A stretch of DNA of 64,000 bases, taken from positions 34,057-98,056 of the IMG/VR virus record IMGVR_UViG_3300023184_000047; one strand, written 5' to 3'. The DNA is from a virus (Duplodnaviria > Heunggongvirae > Uroviricota > Caudoviricetes). Made by a program: the position numbers and the translations under genes. Positions 251 through 44,301 of the stretch are shown piece by piece; position 1 is the stretch's first letter, and every line of letters starts with the position of its first letter. The notes beneath the pieces were generated by a model. It ran no database searches. It had not been told where the DNA came from and saw only the letters and a list, made by a program, of their open reading frames with translations.

Positions 251-1126
251 ATGATAACATATACATTATCTACCTTTAACACATTAAACTACTTAAAACT
301 TGCAATTCATTCAGCTAGAGAAAATGGTTATTATAAAGACGCTCCATTTATTATACATGCTGAAAATTGTACTGATGGTACTGATGAATGGTTAGAAGAA
401 AATAAAGAAAGATATAATTTAGAAGTCTATATTGAAAAAAATGAAACCCCTCGAGGAATAGGTGGAGGAATGAATTTTTGCGCTAGTAAAGTTAAAACCA
501 AATACATTGGGTTTCTATCCTCGGACTTTTATATGTCTCGAAATTGGGATAAAGAATTAGTAGAATTGTGTGAAAATAACCCTCAAGATAAACTATGGAC
601 CTTTTGTTATAGAGTAGAACCAGATATTTTTAATGATCCACATAGCAGACCCGGAGTTATTAAAGTATCAGAAGATACTTTTGGAGAATATTATCATAAC
701 TTTAAAGCTGATTTGTTTGAAGAATGGGCTGATGAATTTACCACATTAAATGATATCCAATACAATCTACCTCAGGGAGTAAGTGGTGTGATCAAAAAAG
801 AAGATTGGGACTATATAGGAGGTAATGATGATAGATTTGCTCCAATGTATTGGGAAGATGCTGATATATTTACTAGGATGTTAAATGAAGGTTTTAAATT
901 TATTACAACAAGTAAAACATTATTATATCATTTTGCCTCCAGAACTAGCAGATTCCCAGATGATAATTTAAAACAAAGACCAGCTCATTTAGCCGAGTAT
1001 GAGCAAAGAAGTTTACGTAGATTTATAGAAAAGTATGGGAAATTACCACAACATGGTCCTTTAGGAGAATATTATCCTATGCCTATTGTAGATGGTTCAC
1101 CAAATAGAATAAACCAAAATAACTAA
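251..1126 (+). CDS. putative glycosyltransferase (hypothetical)
   Basis: 291-aa ORF between fcl and gmd. Only weak GT-A-like N-terminal features; context-based call. Confidence 0.3.
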   Translation: MITYTLSTFNTLNYLKLAIHSARENGYYKDAPFIIHAENCTDGTDEWLEENKERYNLEVYIEKNETPRGIGGGMNFCASKVKTKYIGFLSSDFYMSRNWDKELVELCENNPQDKLWTFCYRVEPDIFNDPHSRPGVIKVSEDTFGEYYHNFKADLFEEWADEFTTLNDIQYNLPQGVSGVIKKEDWDYIGGNDDRFAPMYWEDADIFTRMLNEGFKFITTSKTLLYHFASRTSRFPDDNLKQRPAHLAEYEQRSLRRFIEKYGKLPQHGPLGEYYPMPIVDGSPNRINQNN

Positions 1127-1127
1127 T

Positions 1128-2096
1128 ATGAGTAAAACAGCATTAATAACCGGGATAAACGGAATGGATGGAAGTCACTTAGCAGATTTCCTATTAGAAA
1201 AAGGATATATTGTTTACGGTTTGGAGAGACGCAGCTCAGGTGAAACTAGAGCAAATATTCTTCACCTTCAAGATAGAATAAAATTCATCAAAGGAGACTT
1301 AACAGACCAAAATTCATTGCTTCGAGCTCTTAAAGAATCTCAGCCAGATGAAGTATATAACTTAGCTGCTCAATCCTTTGTAGGTGAAAGTTGGAATACA
1401 CCTGAACAAACTAGTGATGTAACAGGATTAGGAGTACTTAGGATGCTAGAAGCCATTCGTGAATACGGCTCAGATAAAATCAAATTTTATCAAGCATCAT
1501 CTTCAGAAATGTTTGGACGTATGGTTGAAAACCCAGCAAATGAAAACACCCCATTTTATCCTCGTTCACCTTATGGTGTTGCTAAATTATATGGACATTG
1601 GATAACCAAAAACTACAGAGAATCTTATAATATGTTTGCCTGCTCAGGTATATTATTTAACCATGAATCCGAAAGACGTGGTTTGGAATTTGTAACTAGA
1701 AAAATAACTAATGGTGTAGCTAAAATACATTTAGAATTAGCAGATCACATTTCATTAGGTAATTTAGATGCTCAACGTGACTGGGGATATGCTCCTGATT
1801 ATGTTGAAGCAATGTGGTTAATGTTACAGCAAGATACTCCTGATGACTATGTTATTGCTACTAATTGTACTTATTCTATTAAAGATTTCTTAGATGAAGC
1901 CTTTATAGCAATTGGGATTGCAGATTGGGAACCATATGTTAAAATAGATCCCAAATTTATCCGCCCAGCTGAAGTTGATATTCTTAGGGGAAATTGTACA
2001 AAAGCAGAACAAAATTTAAGATGGGCACCCAAAACTAGTTTTAAAGAAATGGTACACTTAATGGTACAAAATGATATAAAATTATTAAGTAAATGA
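1128..2096 (+). CDS. gmd: GDP-mannose 4,6-dehydratase
   Basis: N-terminus ALITGINGMDGSHLADFLLEKGYIVYGLERRSS matches the GMD Rossmann motif [25 protein letters not shown].RRSS. Short-chain dehydrogenase YxxxK present (YGVAKLYGHW). Length 322 aa. Confidence 0.85.
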   Translation: MSKTALITGINGMDGSHLADFLLEKGYIVYGLERRSSGETRANILHLQDRIKFIKGDLTDQNSLLRALKESQPDEVYNLAAQSFVGESWNTPEQTSDVTGLGVLRMLEAIREYGSDKIKFYQASSSEMFGRMVENPANENTPFYPRSPYGVAKLYGHWITKNYRESYNMFACSGILFNHESERRGLEFVTRKITNGVAKIHLELADHISLGNLDAQRDWGYAPDYVEAMWLMLQQDTPDDYVIATNCTYSIKDFLDEAFIAIGIADWEPYVKIDPKFIRPAEVDILRGNCTKAEQNLRWAPKTSFKEMVHLMVQNDIKLLSK

Positions 2097-3145
2097 TATC
2101 ACTAATAATACCTGTTACAACATCTAATTTAAACTATACAAATAATATAGTTCGTAATATTAGAGATTTATACCCTAATGAAGAAGAAGTTGAAATTATT
2201 CTAGAAACTAACGATAATGTCAGTTTGGGAATTAATTACAATAACGCTGTTGCTCGTGCTAAAGGTGAAAAAATAATATTATTACATAACGATATGGTTT
2301 TATCTAAAGGTTTTATAGAAACCATGGATAAACATATAAGTAAACGCACAATAACGACGTATACTCGCATAGAACCTCCCATTTACCCAGATATATATCC
2401 TGGTAAAGTTATTAAAGATTGTGGCTCGGACTTAGGTACATTTGATGAAAACCTATTTAATCAAATTCAATTAGAAGAAAGTTTAATCGATGGGGGTTCT
2501 CAATTATTCTTTGGATGTTATAAAGAAGATTATATTGGGATTGATGGGTATACATTTAAAAAATTTTGTGAAGATGATGATCTTCACTTAAGATATCAAC
2601 TAGCCGGATTCGAACATAAAGTAAGTTCAGCTTATGTTTATCATTTTGTAAGCAAAACATCACGTGTAGGAGACTATAATCATATAGAAAAAAATTCAAA
2701 TCGTGATTTTATTCGTAAATGGGGTTCAAGAAAACCATCTGTAAAATATAATATTGCTTATGTTGTTAAAAATTGTCAATTACCTGTTTTAGATACCTTT
2801 GAATTATTTTGTGATAGAATATATGTAAATGAACGATTATCTATTGGTAGATTGTGGGATTACGTTGAATTAGAACAGGAAAATACTTCATTTGATCTAT
2901 CAAAGAGAGTATATACTATAGAACATAATGATCCAATACTAGAAAACGATATTGTAGTTGAATTTGATTATCTAAAATTTTCTCCTGAAGCTTGGGAAAT
3001 ATTACAACAATTACCTAATATAATTAAAGAAAATGGTGAAGTAGGTACATTTGAGTTGGATATATTTACAATTACTATTAATTCACTGCCTGAATACCAA
3101 AACGATTTAATATTTATATCAAAACAACATAATGAAACCAGTTAG
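2093..3145 (+). CDS. family-2-like glycosyltransferase
   Basis: N-terminal IIPVTTSN...EIILETNDN...ILLHNDMVL pattern is typical of a GT-A fold. Start overlaps the gmd stop (ATGA). Ends with TAG. Confidence 0.45.
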   Translation: MISLIIPVTTSNLNYTNNIVRNIRDLYPNEEEVEIILETNDNVSLGINYNNAVARAKGEKIILLHNDMVLSKGFIETMDKHISKRTITTYTRIEPPIYPDIYPGKVIKDCGSDLGTFDENLFNQIQLEESLIDGGSQLFFGCYKEDYIGIDGYTFKKFCEDDDLHLRYQLAGFEHKVSSAYVYHFVSKTSRVGDYNHIEKNSNRDFIRKWGSRKPSVKYNIAYVVKNCQLPVLDTFELFCDRIYVNERLSIGRLWDYVELEQENTSFDLSKRVYTIEHNDPILENDIVVEFDYLKFSPEAWEILQQLPNIIKENGEVGTFELDIFTITINSLPEYQNDLIFISKQHNETS

Positions 3146-6235: not shown

Positions 6236-6329
6236 GGAGGATTAAGCCGAAAGATTCTGGGTACCGGCAGCGCACTTGAAATGCGTCGATCATTAAAATG
6301 GTGTATGGGTTCGAATCCTATATCCTCCG
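6236..6329 (+). tRNA. tRNA-Ser(TGA), type II
   Basis: Acceptor ggaggat/atcctcc perfect. Anticodon stem gcgca/tgcgt with loop cTTGAaa. Long variable arm. T-arm atggg-TTCGAAT-cctat. Confidence 0.65.
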
Positions 6330-6335
6330 CAACAT

Positions 6336-6407
6336 TGGCTTATAGTGTAATGGTTAGCACAAAACACTTTGACTGTTTTAGTCTAGGTTCGAGTCCTAGT
6401 AAGCCAA
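6336..6407 (+). tRNA. tRNA-Gln(TTG)
   Basis: Acceptor tggctta/taagcca. D-stem gtgt/gcac. Anticodon stem aaaca/tgttt with loop cTTTGac. T-arm ctagg-TTCGAGT-cctag. Confidence 0.75.
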
Positions 6408-6416
6408 CTTTAATTT

Positions 6417-6490
6417 CTAGTAGCGAAGCCCGGTTTCATGCCTCACTTGGACTGAGGAGTACGTAGGTTCGAATCCTGCCTATTAGACCA
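6417..6490 (+). tRNA. tRNA-Pro(TGG), CCA encoded
   Basis: Anticodon stem cctca/tgagg with loop cTTGGac. T-arm gtagg-TTCGAAT-cctgc. Acceptor ctagtag/ctattag, then A and CCA. D-arm irregular. Confidence 0.5.
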
Positions 6491-6548
6491 CCACAAATAG
6501 AGCCGACGGCCGTGTAAAGGTGCCGCCTATCGTGAATTTCGGCAATAT

Positions 6549-6621
6549 TCCCTTGAAGCTCATGTGGACGGGCACTCCGCTTTTAACGGAGGGGTAGATG
6601 GTTCGAGGCCATCCGGGGGAA
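6549..6621 (+). tRNA. tRNA-Lys(TTT)
   Basis: Acceptor tcccttg/cggggga (two G.U). D-stem gctc/gggc. Anticodon stem ctccg/cggag with loop cTTTTaa. T-arm gatgg-TTCGAGG-ccatc. Confidence 0.7.
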
Positions 6622-6680
6622 CAAACACAGTTTACTTCGGCAACGTTCTGTATGGTGCACATAAAAATCGGAGCCGACCA

Positions 6681-6751
6681 GCCTCGATGGCGTAATGGAA
6701 GCGTATTTGTTTTACATGCAAATGGCAGTGGTTCGATTCCACTTCGAGGTA
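6681..6751 (+). tRNA. tRNA-Val(TAC)
   Basis: Acceptor gcctcga/tcgaggt. Anticodon stem tttgt/gcaaa with loop tTTACat. T-arm agtgg-TTCGATT-ccact. Confidence 0.7.
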
Positions 6752-6759
6752 CAAAAATT

Positions 6760-6840
6760 GGGTAGCAAAAGTCGTTCGGATACGGCAGCCAGACTGTAAA
6801 TTTGGTCCTCACGGGAGTGGTTCGAGTCCACTGCTGCCCA
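6760..6840 (+). tRNA. tRNA-Tyr(GTA), long variable arm
   Basis: Acceptor gggtagc/gctgccc. Anticodon stem ccaga/tttgg with loop cTGTAaa. Variable stem-loop tcc-tcacg-gga. T-arm agtgg-TTCGAGT-ccact. Confidence 0.6.
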
Positions 6841-6943
6841 CAAAGTGTTGACTTCAGGTTCCCAGTAGGGAAGTACACTTAAATAAAACAAGCACGGGGA
6901 AAGTGTCGACTTAAGAAACGGCAAGTACCAACGAAGGGAGTAC

Positions 6944-7016
6944 GGGTCTTTTGTATAGCTGGTGCGTACGCTAGTCTGAAGAACTAGAGGAGCAGGTTCG
7001 ATTCCTGTAGGACCCA
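6944..7016 (+). tRNA. tRNA-Phe(GAA)
   Basis: Acceptor gggtctt/aggaccc. Anticodon stem ctagt/actag with loop cTGAAga. T-arm gcagg-TTCGATT-cctgt. Confidence 0.75.
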
Positions 7017-7029
7017 CTGTATTAACCTT

Positions 7030-7101
7030 GGACTTGTAGCTCAGAGGAAGAGCGTTTGCCTGTTAAGCAAAGGGTCGGGATTTCGAAATTCCCCAAGTCC
7101 G
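7030..7101 (+). tRNA. tRNA-Asn(GTT)
   Basis: Acceptor ggacttg/caagtcc perfect. D-arm tagctcagaggaagagc. Anticodon loop cTGTTaa. Confidence 0.75.
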
Positions 7102-7110
7102 CAATAAATT

Positions 7111-7182
7111 GCTCCTATAGTAGAATGGTTAGCACACATCTCTGATAAGGATGAAATGGAGGTTCAATTCCTTCTAGGAGTA
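7111..7182 (+). tRNA. tRNA-Ile(GAT)
   Basis: Acceptor gctccta/taggagt. Anticodon stem catct/ggatg with loop cTGATaa. T-arm ggagg-TTCAATT-ccttc. Confidence 0.65.
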
Positions 7183-7240
7183 CAAAGTAGAATAAGCTAG
7201 TGTTGGGCCTACAGGAATGATATCTTCCACAACACTCTTT

Positions 7241-7327
7241 GGAGAATAGTCTAATATTGGTTCGTAGTGGCATCCTGCTAAGATGTTCCTGGTAAAACAG
7301 GTGAGAGTTCGATTCTCTTGTTCTCCG
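7241..7327 (+). tRNA. tRNA-Ser(GCT), type II
   Basis: Acceptor ggagaat/gttctcc. Anticodon stem gcatc/gatgt with loop cTGCTaa. Variable arm cctg-gtaaaa-cagg. T-arm gagag-TTCGATT-ctctt. Length 87 nt. Confidence 0.7.
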
Positions 7328-7463
7328 CAAAAAAACCTCCTCACCGTCCTCACAACGCATCTAAGGAATGCAGGAGATGAAAGTACGAACGGGGCACTAG
7401 TGGTAGGACACTTGATCAAAAAATCTATAGTACAACGATAGGGTAAGAGGTTCCCTATCAACT

Positions 7464-7532
7464 ACCGAGTGAGCTTGGGATCAAGGATGGCTCATATCCG
7501 CCCTTAGGTTGGTTCGAATCCAACACTCGGTA
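7464..7532 (+). tRNA. tRNA-Met(CAT) copy 1 (Met, fMet or Ile-lysidine type)
   Basis: Acceptor accgagt/actcggt perfect. Anticodon loop cTCATat. T-arm gttgg-TTCGAAT-ccaac. Compressed D-arm, 69 nt. Confidence 0.5.
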
Positions 7533-7603
7533 CAAAATTAGAAAATGAAGATTAAACCAAACTCATGCCGGATGAGCTTCTTATTGGTTGTCTAATTTTA
7601 CAT

Positions 7604-7677
7604 GGTGATTGTAGCTGAATTGGTAAAGCGTCTGATTGTGGTTCAGGAGATTGTGGGTTCGAGTCCCATCTTTCACA
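7604..7677 (+). tRNA. tRNA-His(GTG) with extra 5' G(-1)
   Basis: Anticodon stem tctga/tcagg with loop tTGTGgt. T-arm gtggg-TTCGAGT-cccat. A G precedes the acceptor, as in His tRNAs. Acceptor gtgattg/ctttcac has two T.T mismatches. Confidence 0.5.
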
Positions 7678-7684
7678 CAAACAC

Positions 7685-7763
7685 ATCCCTGTGGTGAAAT
7701 GGTAAACACGTTTGGTTTAAGCCCAAATGCCTAGGCTTGCTGGTTCGACTCCAGTCAGGGATA
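7685..7763 (+). tRNA. tRNA-Leu(TAA), type II
   Basis: Acceptor atccctg/cagggat perfect. Anticodon stem tttgg/ccaaa with loop tTTAAgc. Variable arm about 11 nt. T-arm gctgg-TTCGACT-ccagt. Confidence 0.7.
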
Positions 7764-7768
7764 CAATT

Positions 7769-7840
7769 GGTCTTATAGTTTAATTGGAAAAACTTATCGC
7801 TACGAACGATAGAACAAAGGTTCGATCCCTTTTAAGACCT
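7769..7840 (+). tRNA. tRNA-Arg(ACG)
   Basis: Acceptor ggtctta/taagacc perfect. D-stem gttt/aaac. Anticodon stem tatcg/cgata with loop cTACGaa. T-arm aaagg-TTCGATC-ccttt. Confidence 0.8.
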
Positions 7841-7845
7841 CAACT

Positions 7846-7917
7846 GCCCTATTAGTTAAACGGATATAACAAATCTCTTCTAAAGATTAATTCTAGGTTC
7901 GATTCCTGGATGGGGTA
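7846..7917 (+). tRNA. tRNA-Arg(TCT)
   Basis: Acceptor gccctat/atggggt. D-stem gtta/taac. Anticodon stem aatct/agatt with loop cTTCTaa. T-arm ctagg-TTCGATT-cctgg. Confidence 0.75.
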
Positions 7918-8015
7918 CAAAAAAATCGTATACCAAAGTTTCCCGTTTAGGATGCAGCTTTAGAGTATTAAGGTGAATAGGCCATTCACAGTAGGTTTAG
8001 CGATATCCTGCAAAT

Positions 8016-8086
8016 GCGTCAGTGGTGCAATGGTAGCATACCGGTCTCCAAAACCGACGATGAGGGTTCGACTCCCTCCTGGCGTG
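8016..8086 (+). tRNA. tRNA-Trp(CCA)
   Basis: Acceptor gcgtcag/ctggcgt. D-stem gtgc/gcat. Anticodon loop cTCCAaa. T-arm gaggg-TTCGACT-ccctc. Confidence 0.65.
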
Positions 8087-8338
8087 CTAAATTATTAATT
8101 ATGAAAAAGAAATTCGATATGCATTAAGTTTATTAACTTAAAATGCATAAAAATGAGAATCAAAAACTATACCAACAAAGAGTATAAGTTAGAAAAAAGA
8201 AAAGAGTATTCAGAATGGGATACCTGGTTTGAAGACTATTGGAGTAAAAAATCCAATATATGGGCCTTCAAGTATAGAGAATACCGTACCTGGAAGTACA
8301 ACAGAAAAACACAATACAAACCTTTAAAATAAGTTATC

Positions 8339-8845
8339 ATGAGTAAGTACCAAAAAACACTGGTAATCGATTCAAGCTTTATGGCAAGAAGCATTATCTC
8401 TACCGAAAGAGCTTTCGTGATTTCGTATAAGGGCAATGCAGAAATAATAGCTGAACACCCAGAAACATTTGGATTAGTAAATCCTAATCTAGAAATTTTT
8501 AAACCTTCAATCATTAGGGTTTACAAATACGTAAAACAAAACATTCAAAAAGTTCCTCTAACAAGAGAAAATGTTTATCGAAGAGATAATTACGAATGTG
8601 TTTATTGTGGATCAAGCCACTTGAAGTCACTAACACTTGATCATGTCATTCCACAATCAAAAGGTGGACAAAATGCTTGGGATAATTTAGTAACAGCATG
8701 TAGAAGATGTAATCATGAAAAAGCAGATTTAACTCTTGAGGAATATGGTAAAGAAATAGTAGAACCAAAAAGACCTCACTATTTTATGCTTATGAAGCAG
8801 TTAACACACATTCCAGTAGAATGGGAAAAGTTTTTACTTTTTTAG
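8339..8845 (+). CDS. HNH homing endonuclease inserted in the tRNA array
   Basis: CVYCGSSHLKSLTLDHVIPQSKGGQNAWDNLVTACRRCNHEK is the canonical HNH/ββα-Me motif with a Cys4 zinc site. A 59-aa ORF sits just upstream (8152..8331). Confidence 0.8.
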   Translation: MSKYQKTLVIDSSFMARSIISTERAFVISYKGNAEIIAEHPETFGLVNPNLEIFKPSIIRVYKYVKQNIQKVPLTRENVYRRDNYECVYCGSSHLKSLTLDHVIPQSKGGQNAWDNLVTACRRCNHEKADLTLEEYGKEIVEPKRPHYFMLMKQLTHIPVEWEKFLLF

Positions 8846-8873
8846 TAAAAAAGTTTGGATATTAAAAAATAAG

Positions 8874-8893
8874 TTCGTATATTTAAGTATAAT
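8874..8893 (+). promoter_or_regulatory. class-A promoter-like motif (second tRNA sub-cluster)
   Basis: aagTTCGTATATTTAAGTATAATtaaag. Confidence 0.45.
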
Positions 8894-9062
8894 TAAAGAG
8901 ATACAAAAATCGGAATTGACCGAGGCATGTGATTAACAGTATTGTACTGACTCGCTTAAGCCCTAAGAGCACTTTAATTTTAAATATAAATCATCTACTA
9001 CATAACACGGCGCCAAATTAATTGTGACATGTACTGTCTGGAAGGTCAGGCTAGGTGAATAG

Positions 9063-9132
9063 GGGCAGGATGGTTATGGAGACCGGCGGGATTGCAAACT
9101 CCGCAGAGTAAGTTCGATTCTTACCTTGCCCT
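9063..9132 (+). tRNA. tRNA-Cys(GCA)-like
   Basis: Acceptor gggcagg/cttgccc. T-arm gtaag-TTCGATT-cttac perfect. Anticodon loop tTGCAaa on a 4-bp stem. D-arm weak. Confidence 0.45.
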
Positions 9133-9227
9133 CTTTTAAGGTTCGACCCTCTACCAAATGTGTTACACCCACAGATGGATACCGAGAGGGAGCTACCGAC
9201 TGATAAGTGACCGCACATGCGGTAAAT

Positions 9228-9340
9228 GGCAAGGTGGCGGAATGGTAAACGCACTGAATAGTTAAACAGAGTGGATAAGTCGCATTATAGTTGAAATACA
9301 CATAAGACCCACGTGCAGGTTCAATTCCTGTCCTTGGCCA
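9228..9340 (+). pseudogene. aberrant 113-nt tRNA-like gene (tRNA with about 40-nt insertion, or pseudo-tRNA)
   Basis: Clean 5' half ggcaagg-tg-gcgg-aatggtaaa-cgc. T-arm gcagg-TTCAATT-cctgt. Acceptor partner ccttggc (6 of 7 paired). No canonical 5-7-5 anticodon arm in the 62 nt between them. Confidence 0.3.
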
Positions 9341-9352
9341 CAAAAATAAATT

Positions 9353-9426
9353 GCTCCGGTGCTGGAACTGGTATACAGGGCGGTCTTAGAAACCGTTTAT
9401 TGAGGGTTCGAATCCCTCCTGGAGTA
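9353..9426 (+). tRNA. tRNA-Leu(TAG) with short variable arm (atypical for Leu)
   Basis: Acceptor gctccgg/ctggagt. Anticodon stem gcggt/accgt with loop cTTAGaa. Variable region only 5 nt. T-arm gaggg-TTCGAAT-ccctc. Confidence 0.55.
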
Positions 9427-9431
9427 CAAAA

Positions 9432-9498
9432 TTACAGTTAGCTTATAGTAAAGCAGCAGGGGCTAACCTGCAGAACGGATACGAAAACCGGCTGTAAT
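9432..9498 (+). tRNA. tRNA-like with CUA (amber-reading) anticodon and degenerate T-arm; possible suppressor or pseudo-tRNA
   Basis: Acceptor ttacagt/gctgtaa (6 bp plus one G.U). D-stem gctt/aagc perfect. Anticodon stem gcagg/cctgc perfect with loop ggCTAac. T-region cgg-atacgaaaa-ccg is non-canonical. Length 67 nt. Confidence 0.35.
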
Positions 9499-9503
9499 TA
9501 AAT

Positions 9504-9576
9504 GCTTCCTTAGCTCAATTGGCAGAGCACTTGTTTTGTAAACAAGAGGTTATCGGATCGTGGCCGGTAGGAAGCT
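9504..9576 (+). tRNA. tRNA-Thr(TGT) with non-canonical T-loop
   Basis: Acceptor gcttcct/aggaagc perfect. D-stem gctc/gagc perfect. Anticodon stem cttgt/acaag perfect with loop tTTGTaa. T-arm atcgg-ATCGTGG-ccggt lacks TTC. Confidence 0.65.
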
Positions 9577-9627
9577 CAAATGGTCTGAGGGAGTCCTTTA
9601 AGGAATAAATAGCCTGTCCCTCTCTAT

Positions 9628-9701
9628 GCAATTATAGTGTTCAACGGCTAGCACGTGGGCCTTCCAAGTCTGAAGTTTCGGTTCGAATCCGAATAATTGC
9701 T
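9628..9701 (+). tRNA. tRNA-Gly(TCC)
   Basis: Acceptor gcaatta/taattgc perfect. D-stem gtgt/gcac. Anticodon loop cTTCCaa (stem with three G.U). T-arm ttcgg-TTCGAAT-ccgaa perfect. Confidence 0.7.
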
Positions 9702-9752
9702 CAAGGGTGTGTGGGAACCCAAGAATATGTGATGAACATATACCCACAATCT

Positions 9753-9824
9753 GCTGCGTTAGTGAAGGGGTTAACACGTATCACTTTCTATGATAAGGCA
9801 CGGGTTCGAATCCCGTACGCAGTA
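9753..9824 (+). tRNA. tRNA-Glu(TTC)
   Basis: Acceptor gctgcgt/acgcagt. Anticodon stem tatca/tgata with loop cTTTCta. T-arm acggg-TTCGAAT-cccgt. Confidence 0.75.
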
Positions 9825-9830
9825 CAATAA

Positions 9831-9902
9831 GGGGCTATAGTGAAATTGGCATCACGATAGATTTGCATTCTGTTATTCCGGGTTCGAATCCCGGTAGCTC
9901 CA
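9831..9902 (+). tRNA. tRNA-Ala(TGC)
   Basis: Acceptor ggggcta/tagctcc (G3.U70 present). D-stem gtga/tcac. Anticodon loop tTTGCat. T-arm ccggg-TTCGAAT-cccgg. Confidence 0.75.
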
Positions 9903-10010
9903 CAAAATTAGGAAGTAAAGACTGAGCAGGACACCGTAAAATGATTCGCAACATTAGAGCTGTTTCTTTTTTTAATATGTGAAAGCGAGATATTAAAACC
10001 TAATTTTTTT

Positions 10011-10082
10011 GGTCTATTCGTTCAACGGCTAGGATACTACCCTGTCACGGTAGGGATGAGAGTTCGATTCTCTCATAGACCG
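10011..10082 (+). tRNA. tRNA-Asp(GTC)
   Basis: Acceptor ggtctat/atagacc perfect. Anticodon stem ctacc/ggtag with loop cTGTCac. T-arm gagag-TTCGATT-ctctc. Confidence 0.75.
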
Positions 10083-10091
10083 CTAATAAAT

Positions 10092-10164
10092 TGCGTTAAA
10101 GTGTAAAGGTTGCATCCTGGTCTCATAAGCCAGGGGGGTGGTTCGAGTCCACGTTACGCTACCA
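10092..10164 (+). tRNA. tRNA-Met(CAT) copy 2, CCA encoded, unpaired 1:72
   Basis: Anticodon stem ctggt/gccag with loop cTCATaa. T-arm ggtgg-TTCGAGT-ccacg. 3' end ...ttacgct-A-CCA. Position 1 (T) does not pair with position 72 (T). Confidence 0.5.
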
Positions 10165-10236
10165 GGCCTTGTAGCTCAAAGGAGGAGCAGTTCGCTCATA
10201 ACGAAAAGGTTGGGATATCATAATTCCCCAAGGCCA
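10165..10236 (+). tRNA. tRNA-Met/Ile(CAT) copy 3 with non-canonical T-loop
   Basis: Acceptor ggccttg/caaggcc perfect. D-stem gctc/gagc. Anticodon loop cTCATaa. T-region ggga-TATCATAAT-tccc lacks TTC. Directly abuts the previous tRNA. Confidence 0.55.
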
Positions 10237-28395: not shown

Positions 28396-28465
28396 AGCCA
28401 ATTGGTGTACTGGCGTACGCACCCGATCGTAAGGGCAAGGGTTGGTTCGATTCCAACATTGGCTT
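28396..28465 (+). tRNA. orphan tRNA-like gene with irregular anticodon arm
   Basis: Acceptor agccaat/attggct perfect. D-stem gtgt/acgc. T-arm gttgg-TTCGATT-ccaac perfect. Anticodon region ccc-gatcgtaa-ggg gives a 3-bp stem with an 8-nt loop; identity unclear (CGT or TCG). Confidence 0.4.
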
Positions 28466-28484
28466 CAAATAAAAACAATAAGTT

Positions 28485-33767: not shown

Positions 33768-34106
33768 ATGAATTTTATAACAGGATTGCTATATGGAATA
33801 CTAGCACAGATATTTACCTTCATACAATTACAAGGACAGTTTAGATGGGAGTGGGCAAAGTCTCATCCATTCATGATGTCTCTTATGGGTGTTCCTATTT
33901 CACTTTTATATTTAGGATCAGTAAAACATTTAGTATCACATTTTGAAGGTCAGCTTTGGCCTTCACGTCTATTGGGATTTGCTATAGGGGCAATAGTATT
34001 TACCATAATGTCTTGGATGTGGTTCAGAGAGCCTTTATCTTTAAAAACTTTAATCTGCCTAGCATTAGCACTTTGTATAATGGGTATACAGCTTTTTATG
34101 AAATGA
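33768..34106 (+). CDS. membrane protein
   Basis: Four predicted TM helices. Confidence 0.45.
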   Translation: MNFITGLLYGILAQIFTFIQLQGQFRWEWAKSHPFMMSLMGVPISLLYLGSVKHLVSHFEGQLWPSRLLGFAIGAIVFTIMSWMWFREPLSLKTLICLALALCIMGIQLFMK

Positions 34107-36294: not shown

Positions 36295-37080
36295 GGTTTT
36301 TTTGTAAGCAACCAACATTATTAAATGTTTTTTTGTTTAACGCATTGTTTTTTTTTGTTGCACAACACCATGTATAATTGGAGTTCATTGAAATTATCGC
36401 GTATTTTTGCGCAATAAACGCGGTTTTTTTTGTTGCTCAAGCAAAGTAGTAACGGTTGTAGAACAAGACGCAAGTATATTAAACGGTATGTGTAGTATTG
36501 TTTTTTTTGTAGCAAATACGCTATAGTATGTGACATGATGTGAGGTAATGGGTATTGTCGTTTGTTGTGTAGGGGAAAAGATCCGCCCCGCCCCGTCCCG
36601 TCTCCTTGAAAACCTAAACGTATATACAACAAAACATAACGTTACGATAGAGCTTCTCGATGGTTGGTATGCGTTTTTGTTATGATTTGACTCCTTTCAC
36701 CCGCGGAAGTCTTGTTTTTGTTGCGTTTCGATAGAGCTTCTCGATGGTTATTGATTTTTTCGATAGAGAAATTTGGTTACTGCAACTTTTTTTTGTACAT
36801 TATAAAAACTTAAAAAATATTTTATGCCTATTATCGTACTGTTTCCCGTTTATGGATTGCTTTTTGGAATACATTATGTCTCACCCGACATAGATGAAAA
36901 TTTTGATGTTGACGACGACGTCCATATGCTTCAAGTCGCACTGGGGTTTTTTGGTTTATCCATTATGTGGTAATTGTTTTTTTTGTTCATAACTTTTTTT
37001 GTTAAAAATTTGGTTACGTTATTTTTGTGTCGTAATTTTATAGCAGAGTTAAAAAATAATTAATTAACATTAAATTTAAA
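36295..37080. promoter_or_regulatory. about 0.8-kb repeat-rich non-coding region (candidate replication origin or regulatory hub)
   Basis: At least 12 copies of G/C-TTTTTTT(T)GT-NNC. Direct repeats of TTCGATAGAGCTTCTCGATGGTT at 36636 and 36727, with a partial third at 36758. GC box CCGCCCCGCCCCGTCCCGTCTCC at about 36583. Only a 49-aa ORF (36824..36973). Ends with a class-B motif. Confidence 0.4.
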
Positions 37081-37084
37081 GGTT

Positions 37085-39011: not shown

Positions 39012-39224
39012 ATGGTAAAAATCGAAAATTTTATTAACGAAAACTTAAACGAGTTTAATCAGTTAGAAAACAGCGAAGTTAAAGAGTACAACACAAACGA
39101 AATCGATAAAGATATTGTCGACTATTTAAAAGATAGTTTTAGACAAAGATACGATTATAAAGATATTTGTGTTTATTACGTAGAAGATTATAGTCAAGTG
39201 TGGGTCGAAAATATGGCTTCATAA
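39012..39224 (+). CDS. hypothetical small protein
   Basis: ORF with a class-B motif at 38973 and a terminator at 39228. Confidence 0.4.
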   Translation: MVKIENFINENLNEFNQLENSEVKEYNTNEIDKDIVDYLKDSFRQRYDYKDICVYYVEDYSQVWVENMAS

Positions 39225-40788: not shown

Positions 40789-41102
40789 TTTTATTTTATT
40801 TTAACACCCTTGAGCCTCATTTTCAATTATGGATTTGAGGCTCATTTATATAAAAACATTTTATATTTGATTTGGTTTATAGATTTATTATTCGTAATTT
40901 TATATCAAAGTTAAATAACAAACCCAATTAAACCAAATATAAAAAATGAATACAATAATACAAATAATAGAGCAAGATGGTTTCTACTGGTTCGAATATA
41001 ATACCAGAACAATAACCCTAATCAGTTTCTCATTGAGCGACTTAATAAAACGTATAGTACAATTAAACCCAACGTTAAACTAACACACGTACGTTAAATA
41101 CT

Positions 41103-41400
41103 AAACAAACAACAACAACTAACATGAGGCGGCCAAAAGGTCGCCTTCATTAATTTAAACACATGTATGCGCGCGTGCGACAAAAAGAATAGCGGGAACG
41201 GGCCTGCGACAAAAACTCTGGTCGGAGTCCCGGGTCTGGAAAAAAAAGAAGGGGGGTCGATCCGCTAGCGCGGCGCGCGCGGGGCGACGGCGAAATGGCC
41301 CCACGGTAATTGCGGTCCATCGACGGCGCGCGGTTGGTGCGCCCGAAGGCCCCGTATCTACAGATAAACGACAAAACCCCGGCCCCGCGCCTCATATATA
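41103..41400. other. about 300-bp GC-rich island (roughly 65% GC) flanked by an 8-bp inverted repeat
   Basis: Intergenic. Starts cATGAGGCGgcc and ends ggccccgCGCCTCATat. Inside are GC blocks separated by A-runs (tgcgacaaaaa twice, ggaaaaaaaag). Abrupt composition switch relative to flanks. Confidence 0.5.
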
Positions 41401-41596
41401 CAAATATACCGCAAAATTATGTTTAATTTTGACTCCCACAAAATCATTATAGCCCATTTCACCACAAAATCCGAGGGAGTAAACTCCTTCTTTTTACAAA
41501 TTTCTTTTCAAAACCAAAACGTATATACGAGAACGTGGATTATAAAAAGATTATTCGTATATTCAATACGTTATTATCGTATTAAAGTATTTAAAG

Positions 41597-42079
41597 ATGA
41601 TGAAAGACAAATTTAAACGTATATCAATAGAGGAGGCTCAAGAGCACTATTATCTAAAACCAGAAGGAATATCTTGTACTATCGCTAATGCATACACGTT
41701 AATGCCTGTTGAGGAACAAGATGGTTGGGAGGAAGTTCACTATTGGATTAAGAAAATATCGTTTAATGCTAAATTAGCTATTGATGAAGGGTATATCTAT
41801 ATTTTAGAGAATAAGAATCAACCGGGTATTTGTAAAATTGGATATACGGATCGTACGCCTCAAGAGCGAGTTAGGGAAATAAATGGTGCTACAGGTGTAA
41901 TTGTTCCGTGGTATATATCGAATGCTTTTCCGTGTAAATCACCTTTAGCTATAGAGCGTTTAGTTCATAGCGCTTTAAGTGATTATTGGGTGAATAAAGA
42001 AGGGTTCGCCGTTACTTTACCTCTCGCCGAACGTACTGTACTTAGTATTATTGTTGAAAATAGCGCAGGTATAGCGTAA
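41597..42079 (+). CDS. T5orf172 / GIY-YIG-like domain protein
   Basis: YIYILENKNQPGICKIGYTDRTPQERVREINGATGV matches the T5orf172-type GIY-YIG core (vYil.n....KIGiT....Rl.eln). Confidence 0.5.
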   Translation: MMKDKFKRISIEEAQEHYYLKPEGISCTIANAYTLMPVEEQDGWEEVHYWIKKISFNAKLAIDEGYIYILENKNQPGICKIGYTDRTPQERVREINGATGVIVPWYISNAFPCKSPLAIERLVHSALSDYWVNKEGFAVTLPLAERTVLSIIVENSAGIA

Positions 42080-42882: not shown

Positions 42883-42935
42883 GAATAATTATAATAGAAA
42901 ATAAAGTTCCTCCCTTTGCGTAGTCCGCATTGGCT

Positions 42936-42964
42936 GACCCGCCCTTAAAAAGGCGGGTTTCTTT
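42936..42964 (+). terminator. rho-independent terminator
   Basis: acccgccc-ttaaaaa-ggcgggt plus a T-rich tail. Confidence 0.6.
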
Positions 42965-43091
42965 ATGTTTCCGCATACTTGTATATATGTATGTATTGAT
43001 GATGTGATTGGAGCGCCTGCTTGAAGATAATTCGGAGGAGACTTGGCTGCCCCAACCCCATTTCGTATGTTGAATCAAAACTAGAAAAATT

Positions 43092-43280: not shown

Positions 43281-43562
43281 ATGATTACCTTTATTGTTAT
43301 ATTAATCCTCTTAGTAGGTGTATTAGGTTATACTTCCTATAATTTATTTAAAAAAGTAGAGAAACTAGAGAAAATGGTTGATGGTCAAGACCAATATATT
43401 AAACAATTTTCTGATACTGTTGATTTTACTAATAAAAGATTGGGGGAAATTGATGACAAAGGGACATTTCAATCTGATGATGAGATAGGATGGTTTTTTG
43501 AAAGTATAAAAACCCTTCAAAATGAATTAAATGACTTCAACCTTAATGGAATTAGAAAATAA
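43281..43562 (+). CDS. small membrane-anchored protein
   Basis: N-terminal TM helix ITFIVILILLVGVLGY. Confidence 0.4.
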   Translation: MITFIVILILLVGVLGYTSYNLFKKVEKLEKMVDGQDQYIKQFSDTVDFTNKRLGEIDDKGTFQSDDEIGWFFESIKTLQNELNDFNLNGIRK

Positions 43563-44301
43563 AACCCTAGTTATTGAATTAACCAAATCTGGTCAACCTC
43601 GTAAACGTAAACCTAAAACATCCAATACTTACTTTACTGAAGATACTCAGAATGCTATTATAGAATATGTAGCCTCACAGAATCAGGATTTTAGAGATAA
43701 AATATATCGTGAACGGATAGAATATGGGTTTTTTAAATTGACTCAAAATATTATTCATACGTTTAAATTTTATTATACTGATGGTGAATCTGTAGAAGAT
43801 GTACAACAGGAAGTAATTGCTTTTTTACTTGAAAAATTAAAATTATATAAGCCTGAGAAAGGTAAAGCGTATTCGTATTTTGGAACTATAGCTAAACGTT
43901 ATTTAATTCTTAAGAATAAGAAAAATTATCAAAAGCTTCAAGACAAAGGTGATTTGATTGAGGTAGATGAGGATAAAACTATTAGAGAAGAAATCATAAA
44001 TGATTATTACGGTAAAGATTATAGCGTAAGTGAGTTTATGAGTTTGTATATCAAATATGTTGATAAGAATTTGAGTAAATTGTTCCCTAAAGACATTGAT
44101 GCTCAAACAGCAAACGCTATTGTTGAATTGTTTCGTAAGTGTGAGTCGTTAGATATATTTAATAAGAAGGCACTTTACATATATATTCGTGAGATAGTTG
44201 ATGTTGATACACCTCAAATTACTAAAATTATTAAGAAACTAAAAATCACGTACGTTGAATTATATAATCAATATTATTCTAGTGGATATATACGGGTATA
44301 A
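43531..44301 (+). CDS. hypothetical protein, possible sigma-factor-like late transcription regulator
   Basis: Segment QQEVIAFLLEKLKLYKPEKGKAYSYFGTIAKRYLI is weakly reminiscent of sigma region 2. Lies immediately upstream of the structural module. Confidence 0.25.
   Translation: MTSTLMELENKTLVIELTKSGQPRKRKPKTSNTYFTEDTQNAIIEYVASQNQDFRDKIYRERIEYGFFKLTQNIIHTFKFYYTDGESVEDVQQEVIAFLLEKLKLYKPEKGKAYSYFGTIAKRYLILKNKKNYQKLQDKGDLIEVDEDKTIREEIINDYYGKDYSVSEFMSLYIKYVDKNLSKLFPKDIDAQTANAIVELFRKCESLDIFNKKALYIYIREIVDVDTPQITKIIKKLKITYVELYNQYYSSGYIRV

Follow-up and report, generated by a model that had tools for sequence, protein, structure and literature searches.

At the pac site of phage P1, phased hexamer repeats flank the cut, in phage λ the R-sites of cosB adjoin cosN, and the ParR-type centromere parC of plasmid R1 consists of ten direct 11-bp repeats. 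Half-palindromic sites in exact helical phase are a signature of a dimeric protein that binds DNA cooperatively, and a binding-to-cleavage spacing of ~23–25 bp is found in I-TevI, the paradigm of GIY-YIG nucleases. The iterons of PLE, an element akin to phage-inducible chromosomal islands, are semi-palindromic repeats, and the T5orf172 enzyme Odn of phage ICP1 binds and cuts iteron arrays, the array being needed for cutting; a required binding-cleavage spacing is mentioned in the discussion of the same work (PMC8263062). Enzymes of the T5orf172 family also mark recombination and exchange boundaries (PMC10448857), and the literature describes CapR of PLE as a domesticated T5orf172 DNA binder that acts as a repressor. 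Here we describe a GC-rich island upstream of a T5orf172 gene in a 64-kb stretch of an uncultured caudoviricete genome (IMG/VR record IMGVR_UViG_3300023184_000047, positions 34,057 to 98,056; hereafter the window). Judging from its sequence, the island is probably a cis-acting protein-binding array that works at the level of the DNA, and we tentatively place the element among genome-processing sites, of the packaging/terminus or the nuclease-dependent type, an assignment that is possible but falls short of probable.

The island lies in a 513-nt gap (41084–41596) between open reading frames (ORFs) at 40946–41083 and 41597–42079 and is intergenic on the plus strand. Its 229 nt from 41165 to 41393 have a GC content of 64.2%, compared with 32.2% for the whole window, and make up the stretch of highest GC content at this length in the 64 kb (z = 5.8), the runner-up elsewhere being intragenic and reaching 54%. 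An earlier note on this DNA, made from the sequence alone, had described an abrupt, intergenic switch to GC-rich sequence in which GC blocks are separated by runs of five to eight adenines, and our windowed GC profile and the A5, A5 and A8 runs at 41182–86, 41211–15 and 41240–47 bear this description out; only the left border that it gave, 41103, lies ~20–60 nt too far to the left.

Within the island, the conserved core is an array of 8-nt units that recur with a period of exactly 11 nt (U1 CGCTAGCG, U2 CGCGCGCG, U3 CGACGGCG, U4 TGGCCCCA, U5 TAATTGCG and U6 CATCGACG). The family consensus of the unit is YGMTRGCG, realised as CGATAGCG or as the palindromic CGCTAGCG. Three to four copies match it clearly, and the register runs on through the near-invariant words YGSYCCCA-YGG, YAATWGCG-GTC and CATCGACG, so that six or more semi-palindromic 8-bp sites (consensus CGMTAGCG) stand in a row; U4 to U6 are nearly invariant as a whole (CCCAYGGYAATWGCGGTCCATCGACG), and in one relative, L116, U5 itself reads CGATAGCG. 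The period is borne out by autocorrelation, which reaches 0.398 at lag 11 compared with 0.26 (z = 20) and peaks again at lag 22 (z = 16). The units hold to the consensus without covariation, L093 having three direct GATAGCG copies and L114 four units, and L029 carries its third unit (CGCTATCG) the other way round from the first two. Because the spacing is exactly 11 bp, all sites of the array face the same side of the helix.

The element has been retained through long divergence and stays in place. Among 48 IMG/VR loci that we seeded on the sigma-like gene downstream of it, a homolog of the island, 71–89% identical, is found in the same position and orientation in every locus that reaches far enough upstream, and it is lacking only in distant relatives, whose sigma-like protein is at most 54% identical. 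In total, there are ~45 distinct copies which, though diverged, share the same architecture, as well as more distant ones that were found through the repeat pattern and through homologs of the T5orf172 protein; GC-richness is retained down to ~55–60% identity in the flanking sigma-like protein. Each contig has the invariant core word a single time, and within IMG/VR the word is confined to this clade; ~40 further metagenome contigs carry it. It is absent from 185,579 species-representative genomes, the single match in GTDB being a chance 23-mer in a GC-rich coding region, and blastn against 50,697 GenBank phages returned no nucleotide relative. We also considered an attP site or a host-derived fragment and rejected both, as there is no integrase and, apart from the chance match, no species-representative genome holds the core.

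A second line of evidence comes from where assemblies stop. Across the 38 whole metagenome contigs that carry the core, which are assemblies and not reads, five from different lineages (L073, L093, L098, L100 and L112) end 23–25 nt after TCGACG, at the homologous nucleotide ±1 and 4 ± 1 nt before the GTATYYNCA block, when 0.05 coincident ends would be expected (P ~ 2e-9, or ~2e-6 after correction). The clustering is one-sided, with ends within 300 nt of the core in 15 of the 38 contigs to its right and in none (0/38) to its left, and in one scaffold an N-gap follows directly upon ATATATAC. To the right of the break point there is a 190-nt ORF insertion in two lineages and a 27-nt insertion in the window. 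DNA ends or rearranges at the break in many lineages, and the zone just beyond it is a hotspot of contig ends, insertions and mosaicism. In L160, one assembly of a clade-B relative, an N-run starts (from ~2420 onward) directly after GCGCGCATATATAC, a further sign that assemblies break on this side of the element. Taken at face value, the ends mark a point at which the DNA preferentially ends, or one that is recombinogenic and prone to breaking assemblies, rather than an established terminus. The coordinates of the array, the break point and the neighbouring features are collected in Table 1.

Table 1. Features in and around the GC-rich island, in coordinates of the window (position 1 is its first nucleotide).
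Feature	Position	Strand	Basis or remark
Terminator-like hairpin belonging to the 45-aa gene upstream, ATGAGGCGGCC-AAAA-GGTCGCCTTCAT	41124..41150	+	Close clade only
81-aa minus-strand ORF, a by-product of the GC-rich sequence	41150..41395	-	Not a gene
Lineage-variable GC-rich 5' part: (GC)n tract and repeated words	41165..41258		Sequence inspection, alignment
Core phased array, six in-register 11-nt units	41263..41325		Autocorrelation, unit consensus, alignments A1 and A3
Hypervariable 23-25-nt spacer	41326..41349		Short hairpin in some lineages; A-rich and non-pairing in others
Recurrent contig-end/break point	41349..41350		4 nt 5' of the GTATYYNCA block
Conserved right-hand block CCCCGTATCTACAGATAAACGACAAAACCCCGGCCCCGCGCCTC (the GTATCTACAG... 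block)	41350..41393		Alignments
Near-invariant AT-rich box ATATATACAAATAT (RTATATAC)	41394..41407		Invariant in alignment A1
27-nt insertion, specific to the window	41408..41434		Missing from the nearest relative, L034
Conserved AT-rich downstream module	41435..41528		Alignment A2
Bacteroidota-type promoter of the T5orf172 gene: -33 GTGG/TTGG at 41535-38, -7 TATATTCA at 41558-65	41535..41565	+	Fits the phage promoter motif; aligned in relatives
160-aa T5orf172/MUG113 (GIY-YIG-type) nuclease-family protein	41597..42079	+	Pfam PF10544, E=1e-14

The earlier note had offered four readings of the island, namely a miniature mobile insertion, foreign DNA, a highly structured RNA and a packaging or replication signal. 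It is the last category that the phased array, the clustered contig ends and the analogous arrays in other phages support best; the other three are not supported. In the mechanism that we propose, a sequence-specific protein, probably with one dimer per site, would polymerise along the array and position nuclease activity at the break point, the cutting enzyme being either a terminase or the downstream T5orf172 protein, and the GC-richness of the sites would make them unique within a genome of 32% GC. Since the nuclease would thus be positioned at the break, the element would serve as a genome-processing site, most likely as a recognition and cleavage site for packaging or terminus formation in the manner of pac and cos.

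The likeness to pac and cos lies in the clustering of short repeated sites beside a break point and in the single-copy, non-coding nature and distinct composition of the element, which in other respects departs from both: in the window it is not found beside terminase genes, its sites differ in sequence and in unit number and keep a strict 11-bp period, and its contig ends are one-sided. What it shares with parC of plasmid R1 is the short direct repeat recurring at exactly 11 bp, an array that a small dimeric DNA-binding protein would coat cooperatively; it differs in having fewer repeats, additional invariant boxes and a break point, in lying within a large myovirus of the lytic type, and in the lack of ParM- or ParR-like genes. 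At ~24 bp, the distance from the last site to the break is reminiscent of I-TevI, in which the binding and cleavage sites are a fixed spacing apart.

Several observations weigh against a genome-processing site. In the 64-kb window no terminase was identified, and no portal gene lies near the element. None of the contigs found begins at the break, 11 of the 11 IMG/VR contigs that include the right-hand block span it, and three short contigs seeded from the right, on T5orf172 homologs, start elsewhere. The assembly of L114 crosses the very point where the related L098 stops, which means that spanning molecules exist, and the contig ends could instead reflect the complexity of the assembly graph or coverage at a possibly hypermodified GC island. 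Nor are the array and the T5orf172 gene inseparable, as the array is intact without the gene next to it in L002, L032 and L036, and L176 has the gene and no array within 2.8 kb. As no contig begins at the break, the terminus stays a candidate. In the search for a genome end from the right side, the exact 45-aa protein encoded upstream was not on record, and L063, at first taken for a contig that starts at the array, turned out to be merely a stored chunk of a longer contig.

Arrays built on the same principle, with GMTAGCG-N4 units at 11-bp spacing, occur also in unrelated phages, where they lie in replication or packaging modules. On the packaging side, the array of L124 is located upstream of a small-terminase gene (Terminase_2) and that of L155 adjoins a GpA terminase. 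On the replication side, arrays adjoin a PriCT_2/Toprim primase and a helicase (L123), lie between a UvrD-type helicase and a primase-polymerase (L157), follow a RepB-primase-like protein (L137), or are embedded in initiator-like helix-turn-helix (HTH) ORFs next to ERF (L125/L140), with L122/L144 being embedded as well, an arrangement comparable to that of λ O and ori. These parallels place the element among DNA recognition arrays for replication or packaging without deciding between the two, and the fact that the arrays recur in unrelated phages is a hint of a DNA-binding specificity that is widespread and as yet unnamed.

Some of these arrays have features of their own. In L125 (~2484–2540), an unrelated AT-rich phage, five GATAGCGAAAC units fall in the linker of the HTH initiator-like ORF beside the ERF recombinase, and as three 11-nt units amount to 33 nt, the array of L125/L140 encodes an 11-aa peptide repeat (RNDSETIAKRW); the layout resembles the origin-inside-gene arrangement of λ O/ori. 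In the GC-rich L122, L144 and L154, GCTAGCG/GATAGCG arrays are preceded by CTCTG-type repeats, which recall the TCTGG repeats of the window, and overlap an ORF whose N-terminus reads W..IPNW..FQHY..R.P.WIK.Y and which has no Pfam match.

The replication modules among these parallels are one of two arguments for the foremost alternative, a replication origin, in which the phased 8-mers would be iterons for a phage initiator and ATATATACAAATAT, together with the A-tracts, the unwinding or bending region. The other is the layout itself, as helically phased, semi-palindromic direct repeats followed by a conserved AT-rich segment are also what is seen in iteron origins such as λ ori within gene O and the origin of PLE, whose iterons are bound by RepA. 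The resemblance does not extend to the dimensions, as the element has 8-bp units at 11-bp spacing whereas classical iterons measure ~17–30 bp and are spaced at ~22 bp or more, nor to the setting, as the element has no linked initiator gene and shows no skew or other sign of replication. There is no initiator, helicase or primase gene nearby, and the window holds no homologs of the initiator-like proteins from the array-bearing phages; the cumulative GC skew is unchanged at 41.3 kb, its slope shifting instead at ~45 kb along with gene class. The proposed unwinding element does not differ in AT-richness from the genome around it, and an origin leaves the precise, one-sided clustering of contig ends unexplained. 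On balance, we regard an origin as rather unlikely, though it deserves to be kept in view beside a genome-processing site. Whichever of the two applies, the element would provide a mappable cis-acting landmark (a genome end or packaging site, or an origin) for an abundant freshwater and marine family of uncultured ~160-kb phages, none of whose members is annotated in GenBank.

The gene downstream of the element invites a different explanation. We collected 72 homologs of its T5orf172 protein, and in 38 of them Y68, K80-I-G-x-T84, R91, N96, E120, H124 and E135 are invariant. The AlphaFold2 model (pLDDT 84) gave weak matches to Slx1/UPF0213 GIY-YIG folds (E ~ 0.25, probability up to 0.94), and in the same fold search the N-terminal, β-rich module remained unmatched. 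Like Odn, CapR and the homing endonucleases of ICP1, the product is a small T5orf172 protein; it has invariant, catalytic-type residues and, being encoded beside the array, is a candidate binder or cutter of it. Unlike in those systems, the gene is conserved, syntenic and core-like, its product measures ~160 aa and carries the uncharacterised N-terminal module, and the array persists without it in three lineages.

The element could serve the T5orf172 protein as an operator or target platform and play no part in genome ends. It would then be either a regulatory array for a module that runs from the T5orf172 gene through the sigma-like gene to structural genes, controlled by a domesticated nuclease in the manner of CapR, or a site recognised by a homing-type nuclease driving recombination. 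The linkage of array and gene, which is frequent across deep divergence, speaks for this, the gene lying 0.2–2.3 kb downstream in most lineages, distant ones among them, and so do the RTATATAC boxes just 5' of -33 promoter elements and the position of the element at the head of a conserved module that includes the sigma-like gene. Precedents exist in the CapR repressor, in the iteron cutter Odn and in homing endonuclease genes at exchange boundaries, and the gene shows presence/absence polymorphism next to a zone of plasticity. What makes the explanation unlikely is that the array is equally well conserved where the gene is absent, that its distance to the gene and the promoter varies over the same 0.2–2.3 kb, that six to seven phased sites and ~100 nt of invariant sequence exceed the needs of a typical operator, and that the gene is conserved and core-like rather than sporadic.

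A bolder form of the genome-processing reading is less likely still, namely that the T5orf172 protein has been domesticated as a core genome-processing enzyme that would dock on the array, cut ~24 bp away and thereby make a terminus or a start for replication or recombination. If true, a large family of uncultured Bacteroidota phages, perhaps with hypermodified guanines, would have a packaging or initiation system that does not depend on terminase only. In any case, the element links a phased-repeat site, a T5orf172 gene and a hotspot of mosaicism, so that nuclease-shaped exchange boundaries become testable in a new lineage. The gene itself is missing in L002/L004/L039, L032 and L036, and the zone of plasticity between element and gene (seen in L002, L003, L010, L032, L036 and L046) holds 0–7 small accessory ORFs that encode up to 381 aa, in sets that differ from lineage to lineage.

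That the island acts instead through a non-coding RNA, as a protein sponge with 11-nt repeats or through a pseudoknotted fold that would escape methods based on minimum free energy (MFE), appears improbable. High GC content set in an AT-rich genome is a classical mark of such RNAs, the unpaired stretches are A-rich on the plus strand, and since all genes are on that strand, read-through probably carries transcription into the island in lineages that lack the upstream terminator, the other conceivable source being a cryptic promoter on the minus strand. Yet Rfam 15 has nothing over the island at the gathering threshold or at E ≤ 10, the best sub-threshold scores in that range amounting to 17.9 bits for a cut-off of 41 bits and 17.4 for one of 50, and ARAGORN finds no tRNA or tmRNA there. 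In 17 homologs compared with dinucleotide shuffles, the MFE z-score of the core is mostly between 0 and +2.8 on both strands. The z-score of the variable 5' part averages -0.6 on the plus and -0.15 on the minus strand, with no consistent excess of folding, and the highly structured RNA that the earlier note had listed among its options is not supported. The consensus fold of RNAalifold reaches only -6.2 kcal/mol, and hairpin pairing between units in the 43-sequence alignment is at the level of shuffled partners (U2 with U3, 71.2% compared with 71.5%; U1 with U3, 79.7% compared with 77.4%).

Across RNAalifold, mutual information and an exhaustive search for helices, the signal is dominated by a split into two clades. 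Two short helices that involve the invariant block are canonical in all sequences, on the minus strand only, but measure 4–5 bp and are mutually exclusive. The minus-strand word TATATTTG resembles a Bacteroidota -7 box in clade A but is lost in clade B and in the distant members; as a promoter, together with TATAAT, it has the wrong spacing and was rejected, and on the plus strand no TTTGG-N19-TAnnTTTA promoter precedes the island; no consistent promoter was found on either strand. The palindromic unit and the inverted third unit of L029 are hallmarks of recognition by a dimer at the level of DNA. Terminator-like hairpins are found at 41126–47 and 41473–90, and resemblances to tmRNA, to a ribozyme of the hepatitis delta virus type and to riboswitches passed no test and were dropped. 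A GC island in an AT-rich phage is thus not automatically an RNA gene.

Nor does the island encode a protein. Of the two observations that the earlier note said would together refute its view, one is made, as relatives carry the same segment, and the other is not, as the 81-aa minus-strand ORF lacks conservation as a protein. The frame is open across the core in 19 of 44 homologs and interrupted by stops even in close relatives, third codon positions are the least variable (0.376 compared with 0.459 and 0.509 at the other two), the clades are separated by 1-nt indels, and there is no Pfam match.

The inverted repeat that was thought to bound the island does exist, as an 8-bp pair formed by ATGAGGCG (41124–41131) and CGCCTCAT (41388–41395), but it is not meaningful as a terminal repeat, because a local hairpin (41126–41147), terminator-like and belonging to the upstream gene, has the left arm as its 5' side, because at least one such pair is present in 39% of composition-matched shuffles, and because the nearest relative, L034, is alone in keeping the right arm. 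The right arm is altered to GCCCCCCGT, ACCCATCAT, GCATTTCAT or GCCCCATGT in six further close relatives, which keep the left hairpin. The hairpin itself is outside the conserved core. With this, a miniature mobile element or recently acquired foreign DNA is left with little but the abrupt switch in GC content and the presence of the pair in the window, and is exceedingly improbable, as the single-copy, syntenic and clade-wide distribution is incompatible with a recent insertion, with a multicopy mobile element and with foreign DNA, and as the clade loci and contigs show no empty sites, conserved terminal inverted repeats or extra copies and the island is flanked by no visible target-site duplication.

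Around the array, the element is modular. The 5' part contains TGCGACAAAAA twice (41176–86 and 41205–15) and TCTGG twice (41217–21 and 41235–39) ahead of the A8 run; clade B relatives lack this part, and a gene stops there ~25 nt before the array. On the other side of the break, the GTATYYNCAR..A.AC portion of the right-hand block is common even to distant members, and the phylogeny of the block is discordant with that of the left half of the element, which makes the element a mosaic. The RTATATAC box is not a recurrent word of the window, and in L018/L027 it stands directly 5' of a TTTGG -33 box. That TATATAC is a late promoter of the phage is doubtful, since the word is too rare, with 8 copies in the window, and both local copies precede -33 boxes. 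The window-specific insertion, in which the window departs from the otherwise near-identical L034, looks like a partial duplication of the CCACAAAATCATTATAG segment that follows it, with the direct repeat CCACAAAATC at 41436 and 41462. The AT-rich module downstream is made up, in this order, of CACAAAATCATTATAGCCCATTT, a second CCACAAAATCC, the hairpin at 41473–41490 with a T-run, and AAAACCAAAACGTATATAC; its second, palindromic GTATATAC, at 41521–28, lies just 5' of the next gene's promoter.

Two other intergenic regions of the window contain related words. The first is a second long (~790 nt), T-rich non-coding region at 36295–37084, with ~10 TTTTTTTGT(T/A/C)GC-like motifs, several of them after hairpins, and finishes with a C-rich tract (CCGCCCCGCCCCGTCCCGTCTCC) and TTGAAAACCTAAACGTATATAC, an ending near-identical to AAAACCAAAACGTATATAC at 41510–41528. 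The second, at 42883–43091 (209 nt, ~40% GC), has on its minus strand ATATATACAAGTAT (42975–42988), one mismatch away from the invariant box by the island.

The window as a whole, at ~32% GC, derives from a large myovirus, as judged from its baseplate wedge, RNA ligase, thymidylate synthase and sigma-like genes. Among cultured phages, the 160-kb Flavobacterium 'immuto' phages come closest, their sigma-like protein being 39% identical. In vB_FspM_immuto, a phage of Flavobacterium, all guanines are replaced by 7-(formylamino)methyl-7-deazaguanine (PMC10516641). If such replacement holds for the present family, the GC island would be the most densely modified stretch of the genome, and the modification could also influence coverage there. 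The plus-strand promoter TTTGG-N19-TAnnTTTA, which is of the Bacteroidota type, recurs in the window and points to a Bacteroidota host (spacer N~19) and to heavy use of the host sigma factor for small early genes. Between 37000 and 41600, examples are found upstream of the genes at 39012, 39318, 40621, 40946 and 41597; TATCAAAGTTAAAC and a short, A-rich leader often come after them.

The sigma-like gene (43531–44301; Sigma70_r2, E=7.5e-6) overlaps a preceding gene for a 93-aa protein (43281–43562) by 32 nt. All relatives keep the pair, which lies directly upstream of the baseplate module. Further away, at 251–3145, the phage carries sugar-nucleotide genes, which encode two glycosyltransferases of family 2 and one GDP-mannose 4,6-dehydratase (Pfam E=2e-130). 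ARAGORN reports a 'tRNA-???' with a 2-nt anticodon at 28396–28466 for which Rfam makes no call, and the two agree on a cluster of 22 tRNA genes at 6237–10236, which cover most amino acids.

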